Shown here in pieces: positions 3-52,035 of a stretch of 64,000 nucleotides of DNA. Source of the stretch: Bacilli bacterium (GTDB taxonomy: Bacteria > Bacillota_I > Bacilli_A > RFN20 > CAG-826); the NCBI GenBank assembly GCA_045597865.1, contig JAZLKX010000001.1:32001-96000 (forward strand), given 5' to 3'. Position numbers and translations under genes: made by a program. The notes under the pieces were generated by a model. The model had not been told where the DNA came from, did not search any database, and saw only the letters and a list, made by a program, of their open reading frames with translations. How positions within the stretch are numbered: the stretch's first letter is position 1; each line of letters begins with the position of its first letter.

Positions 3-224
3 ATTAATTCTTACAATTCTAAAGTCGATTCAAAGAATAGAATCACTTTAAGAAAAGCACGTTTTGATTACTATAACGTGCAAGAATTTGAAGATGGCAA
101 GATTGTTTTGGAACCAAGAGTATTAGTTCCGCCTTTTGAAGTTTCAAAGAGAACATTAAAGATGATGGACAAATCTGTAAACAATGTTAAGAAAAACAAA
201 GTTTCAGATCCTATCAAATTTTAA
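3..224 (+). CDS. Partial (5'-truncated) AbrB/MazE-like antitoxin
   Basis: Open frame INSYNSKVDSKNRITLRKARFDYYNVQEFEDGKIVLEP...; KVDSKNRITL and DGKIVLEP resemble an AbrB fold; its TAA (222-224) overlaps the ATG of the next gene. Confidence 0.65.
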   Translation: MNSYNSKVDSKNRITLRKARFDYYNVQEFEDGKIVLEPRVLVPPFEVSKRTLKMMDKSVNNVKKNKVSDPIKF

Positions 225-3618: not shown

Positions 3619-4707
3619 ATGAGTTACAAAAATAGATTTGGCTTTAAGCAATCCGTTGCATTCAAACACATTATTCGTGGATTTGAATATCTTGATAGAA
3701 TTAGAGATTTTCAAATGGATGGCAATATTGTTCATGCAAAGATATATGGTACAAATCCATATGACGTTTGTTTTGCTATTGATTTTATAAATAGAAAAGT
3801 AATGAATGCTAATTGTACTTGCCCATATATGAATGAACATAAAATGTGTAAGCATATTGCAGCGCTTATGCTCTATGTAGATTTACATATAAATGGTGGT
3901 TCAGTAAAAGAACTTTGTGTTTATCATCTCGCAAATTTTATTGTATCAAAATTAAAAGAATTAAATGGAATGCTTCCAATTGTGAAAGAAGATGATTTAA
4001 AAAAACAAATTGTTGGTAAAAACATTAATTTGCAGAGTAACGACTGTAAATACGCAACTGCATATTTTGAATTGCTTGATAAGGTAAGTGAATCTACATA
4101 TAAAGAAGCTCTTGAATTGCTATTTAAAAAACGTGTCGTGACTATCGACAAAGAAAAGACAGTATGGATAGATAAAAGGCTTTCAAAGAATTATTCTGAT
4201 TCATATCATGATTTCTACGCTAAAAATTCTTTACTTAAAGGATATGGCGACTACATTTATGATCCTTTTGAAGATGAAGAATACTATGATGAAGATCAGG
4301 AATATTATTATGCAACTGAAGTTAAAGAAAAATATAAAGGCATTAACTTGGTTTCTCATACTAGCATTTTCAAAAAGGGTAAATATAAAGAAACACTATT
4401 TTATGATTTTCAAACTGATGAGATCTTTTTTGAGGAAGATATCGATAATCATTTTTCAATTGCTCCTATCGATACATTTGATATTTCTAGTAACTTTATA
4501 GAATTCTTCATTTCAAGTGAATATCTTCCTGAAAAAAGAAAAGTGTTATTAGAAAATTATCAAAACGGAACTTTTTCCTTTGAGAATCTTGATAATACCC
4601 AAAAATCACGTTATAGAAAATTAGAAAACAATTACTTTATTGGAAAAGGAATACAATATTGCTTAGAGAATCATTATGATTTCTGCCTACATGATTATTA
4701 TTTCTAA
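3619..4707 (+). CDS. SWIM zinc-finger protein
   Basis: ANCTCPY...KMCKHIAALM (CxC...CxH); acidic C-terminal half. Confidence 0.7.
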   Translation: MSYKNRFGFKQSVAFKHIIRGFEYLDRIRDFQMDGNIVHAKIYGTNPYDVCFAIDFINRKVMNANCTCPYMNEHKMCKHIAALMLYVDLHINGGSVKELCVYHLANFIVSKLKELNGMLPIVKEDDLKKQIVGKNINLQSNDCKYATAYFELLDKVSESTYKEALELLFKKRVVTIDKEKTVWIDKRLSKNYSDSYHDFYAKNSLLKGYGDYIYDPFEDEEYYDEDQEYYYATEVKEKYKGINLVSHTSIFKKGKYKETLFYDFQTDEIFFEEDIDNHFSIAPIDTFDISSNFIEFFISSEYLPEKRKVLLENYQNGTFSFENLDNTQKSRYRKLENNYFIGKGIQYCLENHYDFCLHDYYF

Positions 4708-46338: not shown

Positions 46339-46643
46339 ATCCATGCTTTATAAACAATAGAGAAATCCTTTATCTTATCCTTATATATCAAAAGAAAAGC
46401 AGGGTGTTTTGTTATTAAGCATTAGAACTTATGTAGAAAAGTATTAACTGGTATTACGATTGTTAGAGTATATAAGCACCCATCTATCATTCATTTTTTA
46501 TTTTTTTATATTTAAGATTCTGTGCTTTTTTATTTTCAAAGGAATTATAACTATTATTAAGAAAAGTAAATTTGAAGTATATGGAACAACACTCCTTGAA
46601 GCAATAGATATTGTTGATATATAATCAATAAGCAACATTTTGT

Positions 46644-48104
46644 TTGTTGCTCCTTAATATGGCAAATAATTTTAATAAAAAAGCTGTTTCCAAAATAGAG
46701 CTATCGGATGATGAAATTATAAAATTAAAAGGCAAAAAAGTTATGATGCCTTTAAAAACCAAATATGGTGATTTTTGGGATGGAAATTTTTCTCGTTATG
46801 AGCACACAATGATTGTAGTTTCTATCAGTGAACGAATTATTAAAACACTAGGTTTAATTAACATTGATAAAGAAATAGTGCGATCGATTGCTAAATTTCA
46901 CGACATTGGTCATTGCCCGTTTGGACATGCTGGTGAAGAATGTTTAAATTCTCTAATTTCTGAAGAATTATTTGAATATCGAGATGAATTCTTTAGTGGA
47001 TATAAGCATAATTTATTATCTTCTAAATTATTATTAGATAAAATTAATCCGTTATCTCCACATTGGAAGATTATTGACGGCATTACTAAACACTGCACAA
47101 CCATGCCTAAAAATTTCAATATTGATCGTGTTCAAAAGAACAATTTATTAAAATTGAATTACATATTTAGAGATGATTTAAAAAACAAAAATTTATTTAT
47201 ACCTAGTGATTCATGGAAACACTATATTTCTAATTTTAATTTTTCTTGTTGTTCGTGTTGTAAAAACAAGATTGTATACTATTCATCAAAATTTAATTAT
47301 AGTTTAAATTCCTTAAATTTATATTTGTGTAGAAAAACTTGTAAAAATGTAGTTTGTTCTAAACTTTTTAATGATGTTGATTTAAATGTAAGTAGATATT
47401 TGCTTGTTCCAGAACCGCTATCATTAGAAGGCTCAATTGTTAAAGCTGCTGATGAAATTGCTTGTTTATCCTATGATTATTTTCTTTATTTTGCATATAT
47501 GAAATATAATAAGATGAATGAAAAAAGTAACATTTGCATTTCAAGAATTGAAAATTCAATTAATCAATTATTCTCATATTCACTTAGTGTTGGCAATTTT
47601 AAAGGAATTAGCGTTCTAAATAGTTTAAATAAACTTGTTTCAGATCCAAACAAAAATAATTGTAACGATTTGATTGAGAATTTAATTTCTTGTTTAGAAT
47701 TATCAAAAAAAGGTAAAAGAGGTTGTGACAGTTTGCTGACATTCGATTCCGATAATCAGCATTTATTCAATAGCATCAAAAATACAATTTATTCTTTAAT
47801 TCATAATGATTTTTATATTTTGAACGACAATCAAATTGGTGCAGAACTAATTCGAAGATATTTTTATTATTTGTGCAAGAAACCCAGTAGGTTTTGCAAA
47901 GCTATCGGAAAGTCTAAATTTAATAAAATTTTCGGAACCTTAAAAACTGGTTGTAATATCAAAACATTTTCAAGATTTAGGAAAACAGATTTTGAGCCTA
48001 AACTTATGAATGTGTATAGAAGGGAAGTTGCTTTTTATATTGCTACATTAACTGAGGACGAACTTGTTAAAAAAAGTAAAAAGTGCTTGTTTTTTCGAAA
48101 GTAA
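46644..48104 (+). CDS. HD-domain dGTPase-like phosphohydrolase
   Basis: SRYEHT, HDIGHCPFGHAGE, YKHN, SLEGSIVKAADEIA, YIATLTE; Cys-rich insert. Confidence 0.8.
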   Translation: MLLLNMANNFNKKAVSKIELSDDEIIKLKGKKVMMPLKTKYGDFWDGNFSRYEHTMIVVSISERIIKTLGLINIDKEIVRSIAKFHDIGHCPFGHAGEECLNSLISEELFEYRDEFFSGYKHNLLSSKLLLDKINPLSPHWKIIDGITKHCTTMPKNFNIDRVQKNNLLKLNYIFRDDLKNKNLFIPSDSWKHYISNFNFSCCSCCKNKIVYYSSKFNYSLNSLNLYLCRKTCKNVVCSKLFNDVDLNVSRYLLVPEPLSLEGSIVKAADEIACLSYDYFLYFAYMKYNKMNEKSNICISRIENSINQLFSYSLSVGNFKGISVLNSLNKLVSDPNKNNCNDLIENLISCLELSKKGKRGCDSLLTFDSDNQHLFNSIKNTIYSLIHNDFYILNDNQIGAELIRRYFYYLCKKPSRFCKAIGKSKFNKIFGTLKTGCNIKTFSRFRKTDFEPKLMNVYRREVAFYIATLTEDELVKKSKKCLFFRK

Positions 48105-48115
48105 ATTGTTATATT
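48087..48115 (+). promoter_or_regulatory. Sigma70-like promoter
   Basis: TTGTTT-17 bp-TATATT with the extended TG. Confidence 0.55.
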
Positions 48116-48120
48116 ATAGA

Positions 48121-48222
48121 TGCTTATCGATGAGATAAGAAGGCAGAGTGCCGAAGATGATGCTGTGAGCATCGACCGTTGAAGTGCATAACTGAGACAA
48201 ATAAGACCTTATGGTCTTTTTT
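48121..48222 (+). ncRNA. Putative ~100-nt structured small RNA
   Basis: GC-rich island with three consecutive hairpins between a promoter and an intrinsic terminator. Confidence 0.55.
48203..48222 (+). terminator. Intrinsic terminator
   Basis: AAGACC-TTAT-GGTCTT followed by a T tract. Confidence 0.75.
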
Positions 48223-48482
48223 ATTTTTGAAGTTTTAATAGTGTTTTATATACATGAAAATAATCGGAATGAAAATAGCACATATAGAACATCACTTAAT
48301 GCGTTCTTTAACATTTGGTTGTTGCCTTAATCTAGAAATCTCAATGAAACTTACTAGCTTCTTCGGAAGCCGTCATGATTTTTTAGAACCCTTAATTAAT
48401 TATAAAAATACTTTTAAATACTTTTTAATTTAATACTATAAAGTTGTATCTTTTATTTTGCAATTTTGCTATCATTTAATAA

Positions 48483-49865
48483 ATGAAAAATTGTCAAATT
48501 TTTACTCCAAGAAAAATAGTTAATAAAATGCTAGACGAAATTGGCTTCAAGGGAGAACATATAATTGGTAAAACAATTTGTGACTTGTCTTGTGGCGATG
48601 GAGCTTTTTTGTCTGAAATTTTAAATAGAATTATTAAAGAATGCAAAAATAAAGAACTGCCAAATGAAGAAATTGCTAAAATTTGCAATGAGTCAATTTA
48701 TGGCTGTGAAATAGATTTCGAAGTATATAAAAAATGCATTAATAAGCTCAATGCTATTGTTGAAAAAAAATTAAATCTTAATATACTTTGGAAAAATATT
48801 ATTACGGATAATGGGCTTCTTTCTTTTGAAGGTAGAAAGTTTGATTTTGTCGTTGGAAATCCTCCTTACATTTCATATGCAGATTTAGAAGATAAGGAAA
48901 GATCTTTTTTAAAAGAAAAATTCAAAACATGTTCATTTAACAAATTTGATTGTTATTTTGGTTTTATTGAAAAGTCTCTCTATCATATAAACGAAAACGG
49001 TTTAGTTGCAATCATTGCCCCAATAAATATGTTCAAAACTAAATCCGGAAAAATTATTAGAGAGTTTATAAAAAATAGTCTTGTTGAGATTATTGATTTA
49101 AGTCAAGAAAAAGTTTTTAAGGGTGTTTTGGTTAATACTGTAATATCGATATACAAAAAAACAAACGATGGTAAGATTAGATTTGTTGTTAATAATAAAA
49201 TAACTACACATTCTTCTGAATTTGTGTTGAATAAACTTTGTAACATTGACAATTCAGGAAAACATAGATTTGGAGATTTTTTTAAAGTTAGCTGTTCTGT
49301 TGCAACATTAAATAACGATGTGTTTGTTGTTGATTCAGAGACTTGTAATAGGAATAATTTTGAAAAAGATTTATTATTTAATGCGACTAGTCCTAGAATT
49401 GTGAAATCTAAATCGGATTTTAAGATACTTTTTCCATATAGGATAGTAAAAGATAGTTATCAAAGACTTTCTGAGGATGAATTTTTGATAAAATATCCCA
49501 ATATTTATAATTATTTAATAATTCATAAGAATAAACTTTTGGATTGTGATAGGGACAGACATTCATCTTGGTTTGAATATGGAAGATCTCAAGGAATAAA
49601 AAACGTTGGAAAGCACCAGGTTCTAATTTCTGCAATTTTTACACATAGTTTGTTTGTATCAACTTTAAAGGAAAAAGATGTTGCTATTGCTGGCTATACC
49701 ATTAAAATATTGGATGAAGAAAGTTTCGGTTTAAAAGAATTAAAACGAATATTAAAAAGCAATGAACTATTTAACTATCTTAAGTCAGTTGGAGTTAAAA
49801 TGTCTGGAGGATCTTATAGATTTTCTAATTTTGACTTAGAAAATTTTATGTTTGATTATGAGTGA
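48483..49865 (+). CDS. N6-adenine DNA methyltransferase (gamma class, TaqI/Eco57I-like)
   Basis: QIFTP, DLSCGDGAFL, FDFVVGNPPY, WFEYGRSQ. Confidence 0.9.
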   Translation: MKNCQIFTPRKIVNKMLDEIGFKGEHIIGKTICDLSCGDGAFLSEILNRIIKECKNKELPNEEIAKICNESIYGCEIDFEVYKKCINKLNAIVEKKLNLNILWKNIITDNGLLSFEGRKFDFVVGNPPYISYADLEDKERSFLKEKFKTCSFNKFDCYFGFIEKSLYHINENGLVAIIAPINMFKTKSGKIIREFIKNSLVEIIDLSQEKVFKGVLVNTVISIYKKTNDGKIRFVVNNKITTHSSEFVLNKLCNIDNSGKHRFGDFFKVSCSVATLNNDVFVVDSETCNRNNFEKDLLFNATSPRIVKSKSDFKILFPYRIVKDSYQRLSEDEFLIKYPNIYNYLIIHKNKLLDCDRDRHSSWFEYGRSQGIKNVGKHQVLISAIFTHSLFVSTLKEKDVAIAGYTIKILDEESFGLKELKRILKSNELFNYLKSVGVKMSGGSYRFSNFDLENFMFDYE

Positions 49866-52035
49866 ACAAGAAAATTTAAATTTTATAATTGATAATACAA
49901 AAATAGCCGAACTTTTTGGTATACAGAATTTTTCTAAATTAGAAAACGCTGTATTAGAACTTGTTAAAAATGCTTATGATGCTGGTTCATCTTCTGTGGA
50001 CATTAATTTTTATGAGGATGAAGTTGTCATAAAAGATAATGGTTGCGGAATGGATCGCGAGGACATACTTGAGTTTTGGATGCATGTTGGTAAAAGCGAT
50101 AAAAAGTATGAGTTTTCCGATTCGCAAAGTAACAAACGAGTTTATGCCGGATCAAAAGGTATTGGGCGTTTTGCTATTGCTCGAATCGGCAAAATAGCCG
50201 AATTAAAGTCTAAAAAAGCAAATTCTCAATGTATTCTTTGGAAAACTGATTGGCAAAACAACACCCTTGAATTAGTTGATGATATTTCGTTTTACGGAAC
50301 AGAAATAAAAATTTATAATTTGCGTGATAGAATCAATCAATCTTTTATCGAAAAGTTAAGCAGATATTTAGGCAGAACAAATTTTGATTCTTTGTTTGAA
50401 ATAAATCTTTTTTATAAAGGTAAAAAATTTGCCTGTAGAAATCCTTTTAAAAGTATTATTGTTGGTGAAACGTGTCTTTCAATGTTTAGGTTACGTTACA
50501 ACAAAATATCCAAAACTTTAAATTTTGATTTATCGTCTGATGAGTTTTCTTCTGAGGCCCAAAAATTTTTGGATGAAATTGGAAGCGACATTAATGTTTC
50601 AAAATTTTCTAGTATTGATCTTTTATCAGCTGCATCGTTTGAGCAAATATTAGATTTTGAAAAAGATGAAATTGATGAGGCACTCAATAAACTTGGAAAT
50701 TTTGACGCCACATTTTGTTTTAATAATAATCCAAATAAACAAGATGTGGACATGTTTCTTTATAAACGCAGTAAAGAAAATTCCATATCATTTTCTAATG
50801 AAGGAATTGCTTTGTTTAGAAATGCGTTTTGCATTGCTGGTTTCGACGGTTCAAATGATTGGTTAAATTTAGGAAAACGTGTTAGAAAATCTCCTGCCGC
50901 TGCATCTCATCAAACCGGCAGTTGGAGGGTAAGGGATAATCAATTAAGCGGTTATGTTTATTTGGATAAAAATGAAAATCATTTAATTAAAGAAATTCAA
51001 AATAGGCAGGGTATCGTTGAAGATGTTTACTATGAAGTTTTCAAGGCAATTGTTATTAAAGGAATTGAGTGTTTTGAAAAATATAGGCAAGCAATAATAA
51101 GAAAAATTAATACCAAGAATAAAATAAATAAAGATAATAATCTGGACCCAAAAATTGATGAATTTATCAAAGATCCAAAGAAAGCAAAAAACTATTCGGA
51201 AAAGGAATTAAATGAATTAGCAAAAAGTGTTGAAAAAGAAAGAAAACAACATTCCGATAACGAACAAATTTATAAACAAAAAGCCGAAAGCCAAGAATAT
51301 AACATTCGTTTATTAAATTCGCTTTCTACTATTGGCTTAAATGCCTCTTGGAAAGCTCACGAACTCGATAATTGTCGCAACAATTTATCTGATTTTACAA
51401 TTAATATTACAAATTCTTTACAAAAATCAGGTTGCTGGAATACTCTTCTTGAATATAGAAAAGGTTTTTCTACTGAGAATGTCCCAACATTATTACAAAA
51501 AAACGATAAAGCAACAAAAAAAGTCTTATTTTTTATCGATTCAATGTTAACTTCTATTGAAAAGAAAAAATTTTCTTTGCAAAATTTGAAACCACATGAA
51601 GTATTACAATCTATTGTTAATAAATGGAAAAATCAATATAGTTGGTTGGTTTTCAATCTTAATGTTCCTGAATTAATTTTTAATAGTAGTGAGGACATAT
51701 TTGAAACAATTTTTGATAATTTAATTTTAAATAGTATTCAGCAAAATTATGATTTTAAGGAATTGGAAATTTCTATTTCTTTGTTTGAACAAGGATCATC
51801 TATATATTTTAAATATTCTGACAATGGAAGAGGCCTTTCAGATAAATATATAAATCATCCTATGGATATTTTAGAGCCACACGAAACAACGCGAAAAAAT
51901 GGCCATGGTTTAGGAATGTGGATTGTTAATAATACCATATTAACTTGTGGTGGTGAAATAGTTGAAATTCAAGGTTCTAATGGTTTTTTAATAAGTTTCA
52001 CGTTAGGAGATATAAGTAATGGAAAAGAAAATTAA
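49852..52035 (+). CDS. GHKL (MORC/HSP90-like) ATPase fused to a histidine kinase
   Basis: ELVKNAYDA, DNGCGM, GSKGIGRF; AHEL; NLILNS, DNGRG, GHGLGMWI. Confidence 0.85.
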   Translation: MIMSEQENLNFIIDNTKIAELFGIQNFSKLENAVLELVKNAYDAGSSSVDINFYEDEVVIKDNGCGMDREDILEFWMHVGKSDKKYEFSDSQSNKRVYAGSKGIGRFAIARIGKIAELKSKKANSQCILWKTDWQNNTLELVDDISFYGTEIKIYNLRDRINQSFIEKLSRYLGRTNFDSLFEINLFYKGKKFACRNPFKSIIVGETCLSMFRLRYNKISKTLNFDLSSDEFSSEAQKFLDEIGSDINVSKFSSIDLLSAASFEQILDFEKDEIDEALNKLGNFDATFCFNNNPNKQDVDMFLYKRSKENSISFSNEGIALFRNAFCIAGFDGSNDWLNLGKRVRKSPAAASHQTGSWRVRDNQLSGYVYLDKNENHLIKEIQNRQGIVEDVYYEVFKAIVIKGIECFEKYRQAIIRKINTKNKINKDNNLDPKIDEFIKDPKKAKNYSEKELNELAKSVEKERKQHSDNEQIYKQKAESQEYNIRLLNSLSTIGLNASWKAHELDNCRNNLSDFTINITNSLQKSGCWNTLLEYRKGFSTENVPTLLQKNDKATKKVLFFIDSMLTSIEKKKFSLQNLKPHEVLQSIVNKWKNQYSWLVFNLNVPELIFNSSEDIFETIFDNLILNSIQQNYDFKELEISISLFEQGSSIYFKYSDNGRGLSDKYINHPMDILEPHETTRKNGHGLGMWIVNNTILTCGGEIVEIQGSNGFLISFTLGDISNGKEN

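Follow-up and report, generated by a model that had tools for sequence, protein, structure and literature searches.

The stretch of DNA analysed here, called the window below, comprises 64,000 nucleotides (nt) of a contig from a Bacilli bacterium (JAZLKX010000001.1, positions 32,001 to 96,000; assembly GCA_045597865.1). On its forward (+) strand it carries a gene for an HD-domain protein resembling deoxyguanosine triphosphatases (dGTPases) at 46659..48104, which encodes 481 amino acids from the ATG at 46659 (the list of open reading frames, ORFs, starts it at the TTG at 46644). At the end of this gene lies a compact series of transcription signals and hairpins, all on the + strand (48087..48228), which we consider as a candidate small RNA gene.

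The series opens with a promoter-like site (48087..48115) composed of TTGTTT (48087-48092), a 17-nt spacer, TG (48107-48108) and the extended -10 box TATATT (48110-48115), with the stop codon TAA of the HD gene (48102-48104) sitting inside the spacer. The geometry of this site predicts a transcription start at a G, 7 nt past the -10 box (48122), and a pyrimidine-G step 6-7 nt past the -10 box occurs in all seven RNA units that we compared. Three short hairpins follow: P1 (CTTATC-GATGA-GATAAG, 48123..48139), P2 (GGCA-GAG-TGCC, 48142..48152), which is bordered by AA and GAA, and P3 (GATGCT-GTG-AGCATC, 48159..48173). A weak fourth stem is then predicted, succeeded by the single-stranded GAGACAAAT directly before the terminator (48178..48198). 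The intrinsic terminator itself (48203..48228) consists of AAGACC-TTAT-GGTCTT (48203-48218), with a 6-bp stem and a TTAT loop, plus a T tract that is found on the + strand only. By sequence and terminator scan alike, no terminator stands between the HD gene and the hairpins, and the one after them serves both the HD mRNA and the RNA unit.

An earlier note made from the letters of this DNA had described the promoter overlapping the HD stop, the three hairpins and the terminator, and each of them is present where it placed them: RNAfold reproduces all three hairpins and the terminator scan agrees, while the -35 box of the promoter is weak. Its description of the element as GC-rich is apt relative to the surroundings, with 44% GC in 48116-48202 versus 23-31% in the adjacent 400-nt windows and 31% in the contig, but not in absolute terms. 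Among the 15 intergenic GC islands of the 121-kb contig, the element has the third-highest peak GC, and one of the two above it is a tRNA. The same control over the whole bin was blurred, as the bin is heterogeneous and 42% GC is reached by 20% of its intergenic 70-nt windows. The element is single-copy in its own genome.

Folding of 48115-48225 on the + strand yields P1 to P3 plus the weak fourth stem, with a minimum free energy of -29.5 kcal/mol and a z-score of -2.89. The strand of the unit is assigned from the promoter and the T tract, because the minus strand folds even better (z -4.23). One of 200 shuffled sequences folds as well as the native one and the stems span only 4-6 bp, so the first alternative to be weighed is that of chance hairpins, devoid of function, in a spacer before a terminator. 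The GC peak speaks against it, and the comparative evidence bearing on it is given below.

A second alternative is a small protein, encoded either by a 20-aa ORF on the + strand (48120-48182) or by a 45-aa hydrophobic ORF on the minus strand (48172-48035), whose product resembles a membrane peptide. Both ORFs exist; on neither strand, however, is there an ORF of similar sequence, length or frame in three related loci described below (L041, L205 and L206), and the motifs that the window has in common with L041 are spaced such that the frame is shifted. We regard a small protein as scarcely credible.

The upstream dGTPase-like protein

The product of 46659..48104 matches the Pfam HD family at 2.2e-10 and the PADLOC model of anti-phage dGTPases (PDLC02374) at 5.7e-20 over residues 50-476. 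Its NCBIfam dGTPase scores lie below the cut-offs (NF041026, 46 bits vs 400; TIGR01353, 53 vs 152). An AlphaFold2 model of the protein has a mean confidence (pLDDT) of 75 and a pTM of 0.82, and Foldseek relates it with a probability of 1.00 to the structures 7lwz, 9p8w, 2dqb and 9p8s, at TM scores of about 0.5. The matches include the anti-phage Shewanella Sp-dGTPase (9p8w) and CloA, and also a structure of the E. coli dGTPase bound to two molecules of DNA effector (4x9e). In an alignment of 14 homologues, the metal-site residues of the H..HD..D type (H49, H81, D82 and D265) are invariant. As modelled, the protein thus has a dGTPase fold with an H..HD..D metal site.

The RNA-linked HD proteins have in common a Cys-rich insert (residues ~190-240), in which C197, C200, C224 and other cysteines are nearly invariant. 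It is modelled at a pLDDT below 50 and could be a zinc- or nucleic-acid-binding module.

The subfamily is rare. A search of 5.8 billion proteins returned 14 members, one of which (P0002) is 83% identical to the window protein, and the relatives come from "Bacilli bacterium" metagenome-assembled genomes of rumen and gut. At E<=1e-30 the gene is present in four of the 401 genomes of the order, in a patchy distribution. Neither the HD alignment against a viral contig collection nor tblastn of plasmid and phage collections with the HD gene gave a match; an alignment of the paralogues had three matches in viral contigs, limited to the N-terminal HD domain and with uninformative flanks.

Recurrence of the gene-plus-RNA layout

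The arrangement seen in the window was sought with a script demanding that the first terminator lie 80-160 nt past the stop codon and that a TTGNNN-16..18-TANNNT pattern occur near the stop. Six dGTPase-like genes of this bacterial family pass (the window gene, L041, L206, L205, L033 and L268), with stop-to-terminator distances of 85-129 nt, and among them are all three dGTPase-like genes of this genome (the window gene, L206 and L268). The proteins of all compared loci match the PADLOC dGTPase model (1e-19 to 1e-36), the flanking genes differ at every locus, and the gene after the unit is convergent in three of the four loci checked (L041, L205 and L206). The census left out L032/L269 and L204, which lie at contig edges, as well as L034 and a match in genome G098.

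L041, 38% identical, is the closest homologue among those compared at the DNA level. Past its stop it has TTGCAT-16-TGcTATTAT, a hairpin, AAGGC-GATGTA-GCCGAA, a third hairpin and a terminator; the second of these hairpins occupies the place of P2, whose counterpart in the window reads AAGGCA-GAG-TGCCGAA. L206 and L205, paralogues with about 33% identity, show a promoter, a structured stretch of 85-100 nt and a terminator past the stop. In addition, three shorter variants (L035, L036 and L037) bear TTGACA-16/17-TATAAT across the stop (TAAAAT in L037), some 55 nt and a terminator; they fail the script because the terminator stem has too few G-C pairs.

Some particulars of these loci may be recorded here. 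L206 lies in the same genome as the window gene, outside the window (G000:C1:115465-116760, minus strand), among homing-endonuclease-like genes (NUMOD, GIY-YIG), and L268 lies on another contig of that genome (G000:C25:113487-114719). Both genes are followed by a unit made of promoter, serial hairpins and terminator, that of L206 lying at about 115130-115227 (minus strand of C1), and the two units differ in sequence. L205 (G078:C3) has an SF1 helicase gene on one side and, on the other, a convergent gene of the Abi_2 type (AbiD/F-like), a setting of the defence-island kind.

The background was taken from the same genome, as all ORFs of at least 150 aa with a terminator within 300 nt (n=448). 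The median stop-to-terminator distance in this set is 32 nt; in 69 of the 448 it falls at 80-160 nt, and 15 of these 69 also have the promoter pattern. Hence 15/448 ORFs pass (3.3%), three of them being the dGTPase-like genes themselves, a genome-wide statistic that needs care since the bin is heterogeneous. The bin (G000) measures 1.74 Mb, versus about 1.1 Mb in relatives, has 35.3% GC overall, versus 31% in contig C1, and has 63 called tRNA/tmRNA genes and 5.4% contamination.

In a class-wide sample of 301 genomes, 27 dGTPase homologues could be evaluated and the only one that passes is L268 of this very genome. Several of the others have a promoter at the stop, but the terminator is not nearby. 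With none of the 26 homologues from other Bacilli families passing, the layout is therefore specific to dGTPase-like genes of the accessory kind in this lineage.

Conservation in sister clades

Two sister clades of the HD gene carry equivalent non-coding blocks. In L035, L036 and L037, which encode homologues of 411-452 aa in three genera, the three-way identity within the ~55-nt RNA block is 0.82, compared with 0.22-0.60 in coding windows and 0.24 past the terminator. In L042, L043 and L121 (L122 is identical), conserved non-coding blocks lie on both sides of the HD gene: upstream, a conserved promoter, an RNA of about 110 nt and a terminator, and downstream a block of about 95 nt, the intervening terminator stems being different between loci. 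Judged by eye from the alignments, conservation of both blocks far exceeds that of the gene.

On its minus strand, the downstream block of L042, L043 and L121 repeats the upstream RNA gene, in a second copy that retains the CATAAT-ATATAT box and lacks the first hairpin. The inverted copies (L042:260-384 and 1948-2092; L043:2827-2951 and 4513-4657; L121:2843-2967 and 4530-4674) have a common core of GCGG-hairpin-TGTCGGAT, and all six fold into the same three serial hairpins. Moreover, P2 and P4 of this RNA differ in sequence between the two copies and keep their pairing. These alignments point to purifying selection on equivalent non-coding blocks in two sister clades.

Such conservation, together with a layout that recurs at six or more related genes where the background is 3.3%, argues against chance hairpins. 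In favour of chance, the RNAs of different loci have no significant sequence in common; we rate it as quite improbable.

A more serious alternative is a cis-acting element in the 3' untranslated region of the HD mRNA, namely stabilising or autoregulatory hairpins with no role as a trans-acting RNA, for which the "promoter" would be incidental AT-rich sequence. Since no terminator intervenes, the hairpins are indeed inside the HD transcript; the -35 box is weak and a consensus scanner did not list the promoter, and promoter-like matches are common, as the 15 of 69 background genes with 80-160 nt spacing indicate. Nonetheless, a promoter-like site occurs at the stop in all six passing units and is canonical in L035, L036 and L037 (with TAAAAT in the last), and a pyrimidine-purine start at the expected distance from the -10 box is seen in 7/7 units. 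Furthermore, the unit of L042, L043 and L121 cannot be a 3' untranslated region, because it precedes the gene, has a promoter and a terminator to itself, and recurs downstream on the opposite strand. We judge the cis-acting explanation unlikely, although it deserves serious consideration.

The same inverted copies bear on another alternative, an independent base-pairing small RNA (sRNA) or regulatory RNA that travels with the gene and has other targets, or that is antisense to the HD mRNA as in type I systems. The unit is built like an sRNA gene that stands alone, and in L042, L043 and L121 the downstream block is complementary over 30 nt to the HD leader, with duplex energies of -65 and -59 kcal/mol versus -26 and -29 for shuffles (standard deviation, sd, ~3.4). 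This 30-nt complementarity between the two copies permits an antisense reading as well, but the better interpretation is that of a second, inverted copy of the RNA gene, -10 box included. In the window and L041, by contrast, the longest exact complement to the HD gene or leader of the same locus is 8-9 nt, as in shuffles, and the duplexes reach -31 and -34 kcal/mol against -29 and -28 for shuffles (sd 3.3 and 3.6). Antisense pairing to its own mRNA was accordingly rejected for the window clade, both complement length and duplex energy being at shuffle level, and an independent base-pairing RNA seems to us distinctly unlikely.

Strain comparison and genomic surroundings

A gut-metagenome DNA run, X1, contains a strain 97.7% identical to that of the window; otherwise, the runs found to contain the stretch were two of the same study, and no RNA run was among them. 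A 3016-nt contig of X1 aligns to 47997-48248 and its other 2763 nt are not in the window, so that homology ends at 48248..48249, on the right border of the gene-plus-RNA unit. In the terminator, X1 shows just a loop change (48211 A>T) and one extra T. Because X1 keeps all three parts and diverges at 48248, this alignment argues that gene, RNA and terminator travel together and that the restriction-modification genes downstream lie outside the unit.

This border, 30 nt past the terminator, might also be that of an element acting at the DNA level, for example a site of recombination or one end of a mobile cassette that holds the HD gene. The patchy distribution of the gene in its order, a tyrosine recombinase downstream in L041 and the inverted repeats on both sides of the gene in L042, L043 and L121 would agree with this. 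Those repeats are not terminal, however, because conservation extends ~55-60 nt beyond the inverted core on both sides, promoters included. No direct repeats or tRNA fragments were found, and the promoter, purine start and U-tract terminator are signals of transcription. A DNA-level element is therefore, in our estimation, very improbable.

The HD gene is located between a Wzy-like polysaccharide cluster and a restriction-like pair of N6-methyltransferase and HATPase genes. In the latter (48483-52035), a DNA methyltransferase of the Eco57I/N6 type comes first and a protein of 727 aa second; this protein has two HATPase domains and matches PADLOC models of type II restriction enzymes. As X1 has no homology to the window past 48248, strains appear to differ in this pair. 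The spacer from the RNA terminator to the methylase gene contains a further hairpin with a UUCG loop, GCTTC-TTCG-GAAGC (48357-48384), with a T run 8 nt later, which falls inside an unsupported 59-aa ORF (48254-48433). Outside the window, G000:C1:3782-3901 has the highest peak GC (0.53) of the non-tRNA intergenic islands of the contig.

Relation to known RNA families

The earlier note had allowed that the element might prove to belong to an unrelated known RNA family. The whole window gave no match to Rfam 15 at the gathering score; at E<=10, the three matches in 47900-48600 are all outside 48087-48228, and at E<=0.5 the seven related loci gave none.

Among the RNAs themselves, L206 versus L205 is the only significant pair in local alignments (z 3.1), and the MAFFT alignment of window and L041 misplaces P2. 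The pattern GATGAG..AAGGC..GCCGAA, drawn from the motif shared by these two, has 36 matches in 34 of 401 family genomes, of which only those in G000 and G078 are HD-linked; the others sit in GC-richer genera and look coding, and a reversed control pattern gave four matches. Searching 201 family genomes with the element by blastn returned only terminator-sized or short chance matches. AGACAA precedes the terminator stem by 8 nt in the window, 13 nt in L206 and 11 nt in L205, a hint that is not significant alone.

Three known kinds of element were also considered and rejected. A toxin-antitoxin system of type III in the strict sense of ToxIN does not apply, as the RNA has no tandem direct repeats and the protein has an HD/dGTPase fold instead of that of a ToxN/AbiQ-type endoribonuclease; the only tandem repeat reported by TRF was a trivial 10-nt unit in 1.9 copies (48114-48132). 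Of type III systems in the broad sense, AvcID included, the locus has one feature, the genetic linkage of a candidate non-coding RNA (ncRNA) gene to an effector gene across relatives, with six loci identified by the script, three with short units and three sister-clade loci with two RNA copies each. A type I system was set aside for want of complementarity above shuffles and of a conserved small ORF. Finally, a riboswitch or attenuator leader was discarded: L041, L205 and L206 have a convergent gene after the unit, which is for that reason not a 5' leader, and X1 diverges right past the terminator. Upstream of the window gene, where a leader RNA could lie as in L042, L043 and L121, the region 46380-46515 folds no better than shuffles (z +0.95).

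Comparison with protein-RNA defence systems

The nearest parallel is AvcID, classed among the type III systems, in which the AvcI sRNA is reported to bind and inhibit AvcD, a nucleotide-depleting deoxycytidine (dC) deaminase, and to be lost upon transcription shut-off (PMC10511110). As there, an enzyme of a nucleotide-pool-depleting, anti-phage type adjoins a candidate small non-coding RNA. The differences are that the window enzyme has an HD/dGTPase fold whereas AvcD has a deaminase fold, that the window RNA lies downstream on the same strand, and that its predicted length is ~85-105 nt while the avcI transcript is given as ~280 nt in the same report.

With ToxIN, CptIN and TenpIN the locus shares a protein effector beside a structured RNA, here a candidate, and an intrinsic terminator by which the ratio of RNA to protein is set, and L042, L043 and L121 even follow the ToxIN order of promoter, RNA, terminator and gene. 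The absence of repeats in the RNA and of an endoribonuclease has already been mentioned as setting the window apart. AbiF-RCd22 of Clostridioides difficile, as outlined in its preprint, offers a Bacillota defence protein neutralised by a structured ncRNA in cis and in trans (10.1101/2025.04.15.648962). AbiF, however, belongs to the Abi_2 family, and the window RNA does not match the Rfam abiF motif.

On the protein side, Sp-dGTPase and its relatives, and the Clover system CloA-CloB, have the same fold and the same PADLOC model as the window protein, and the window gene, beside a restriction-modification pair, is in a defence-island-like setting such as those of anti-phage dGTPases. In contrast to them, it scores far below the NCBIfam cut-off and has the Cys-rich insert; moreover, the published systems are single genes or have a p3diT-making protein partner, whereas the window gene adjoins a candidate RNA. 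The CloA dGTPase is described as needing a restraining partner. Phage T7 is reported to escape dGTPase defence through mutations in modifiers of the host RNA polymerase (10.1101/2021.04.26.441389).

For the dNTPase fold to accommodate a nucleic acid would not be extraordinary. Nucleic-acid binding affects the assembly state of SAMHD1. Structural and biochemical precedents, as far as these sources present them, are E. coli Dgt with DNA effectors (4x9e) and SAMHD1 with single-stranded nucleic acids (PMC4513882, PMC7854603). Unlike the candidate discussed here, those ligands are not dedicated, genetically linked RNAs.

A proposed RNA partner for the enzyme

The sequence features of the unit, the dGTPase fold of its neighbour, the recurrence of the layout amid differing neighbours and the selection in sister clades are the observations from which we start. 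The reading that we favour is that of an RNA partner, similar to AvcI or ToxI, that restrains the dNTPase; we hold it tentatively, as somewhat short of an even chance. On this account, 48122 to ~48228 would be a small RNA gene of ~85-105 nt belonging to the upstream dGTPase-like gene, its RNA consisting of the short hairpins P1 to P3 in series, a single-stranded tail rich in purines and the intrinsic terminator. The RNA would be made in two ways, from its own extended -10 promoter and as the 3' end of every HD mRNA, so that it would always be at least as abundant as the message of the enzyme. It would bind the enzyme and hold it inactive, as AvcI does with AvcD or ToxI with ToxN. Shut-off of host transcription or breakdown of host RNA by a phage would cost the cell this labile RNA, and the freed dNTPase would then deplete the deoxynucleoside triphosphate (dNTP) pool. 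Such an RNA-decay trigger would fit both the escape of T7 through modifiers of the host RNA polymerase and the need of CloA for a partner. Transcription, binding, inhibition and trigger are all steps that we infer.

Several observations weigh against this reading. The -35 box matches the consensus at three of six positions, which makes the promoter lean on its TGn extended -10; the site passes the promoter pattern used in the genome control and was missed by a stricter consensus scanner, because of that -35. The window RNA follows its gene, unlike ToxI and ToxN. The layout criteria were set after the first cases had been seen, the homologous loci tested are not independent, and housekeeping-type dGTPases of other Bacilli have no such unit, which is hence not general to the enzyme family. 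The strain comparison adds little: X1 differs at 31 positions in 1354 nt of the gene and at none in 48120-48200, where zero changes in 81 nt against ~1.9 expected is not significant, and as the single close relative is identical in the RNA core it offers no variation on which covariation could be scored. As for the RNA itself, the local alignment of window and L041 is not significant (z 0.8), the RNAs share no more 6-mers than shuffles do (P 0.21), and the motif common to window and L041 has no third HD-linked instance in the 401 family genomes. A covariance model of the L042, L043 and L121 RNA recovered its six training copies and nothing at 48120-48200 at E<=10. Sequence comparison, then, does not demonstrate homology between the RNAs of different clades.

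The proposals of the earlier note come out of this divided. It had tied the RNA to the dGTPase-like gene and suggested looking for a similar structure next to homologues: relatives do have a promoter-RNA-terminator unit of their own in differing contexts across the family, while homology of the RNA sequences between clades escapes detection. The link underlying its antitoxin-or-sensor proposal is thus supported comparatively, and the function itself stays conjectural. It had also called the pairing one not known to be described. The literature searched contains no dGTPase-RNA pairing, and a survey from 2026 on the homologues of dGTPases uses none of the words non-coding, ncRNA, small RNA and antitoxin; restraint of AvcD by the AvcI sRNA, on the other hand, was already reported (PMC10511110). 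The pairing would therefore be new but its principle known, AvcID being already an RNA antitoxin for a nucleotide-depleting enzyme. This claim of novelty draws on the comparison of about a dozen loci.

A broader proposal may be advanced, which we find possible while leaning against it: accessory anti-phage-type dGTPases would be two-part protein-RNA modules, each paralogue with a fast-evolving cognate RNA that restrains it and whose decay is the trigger, which would be the "monitoring of RNAP integrity" noted for dGTPases in 2021, and this one gut Bacilli genome would hold three pairs that do not cross-react.

How nucleotide-depleting effectors are kept silent and released is known for the dC deaminase (by the AvcI sRNA) and for Clover (by the p3diT signal), but not for most dGTPases. 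A dedicated RNA beside dGTPase-like genes would place dNTP-depleting effectors of a second class under the control of RNA antitoxins, and uncultured gut Bacilli would be the source of new RNA folds that bind proteins. It would also mean that cloning these genes without their 3' (or 5') flank may drop the regulator. If the broader proposal is true, dGTPase defence would have its long-sought trigger in the decay of that RNA once a phage has shut off transcription. With a dedicated RNA, the trigger would in any case be concrete and testable, namely the loss of a labile RNA.

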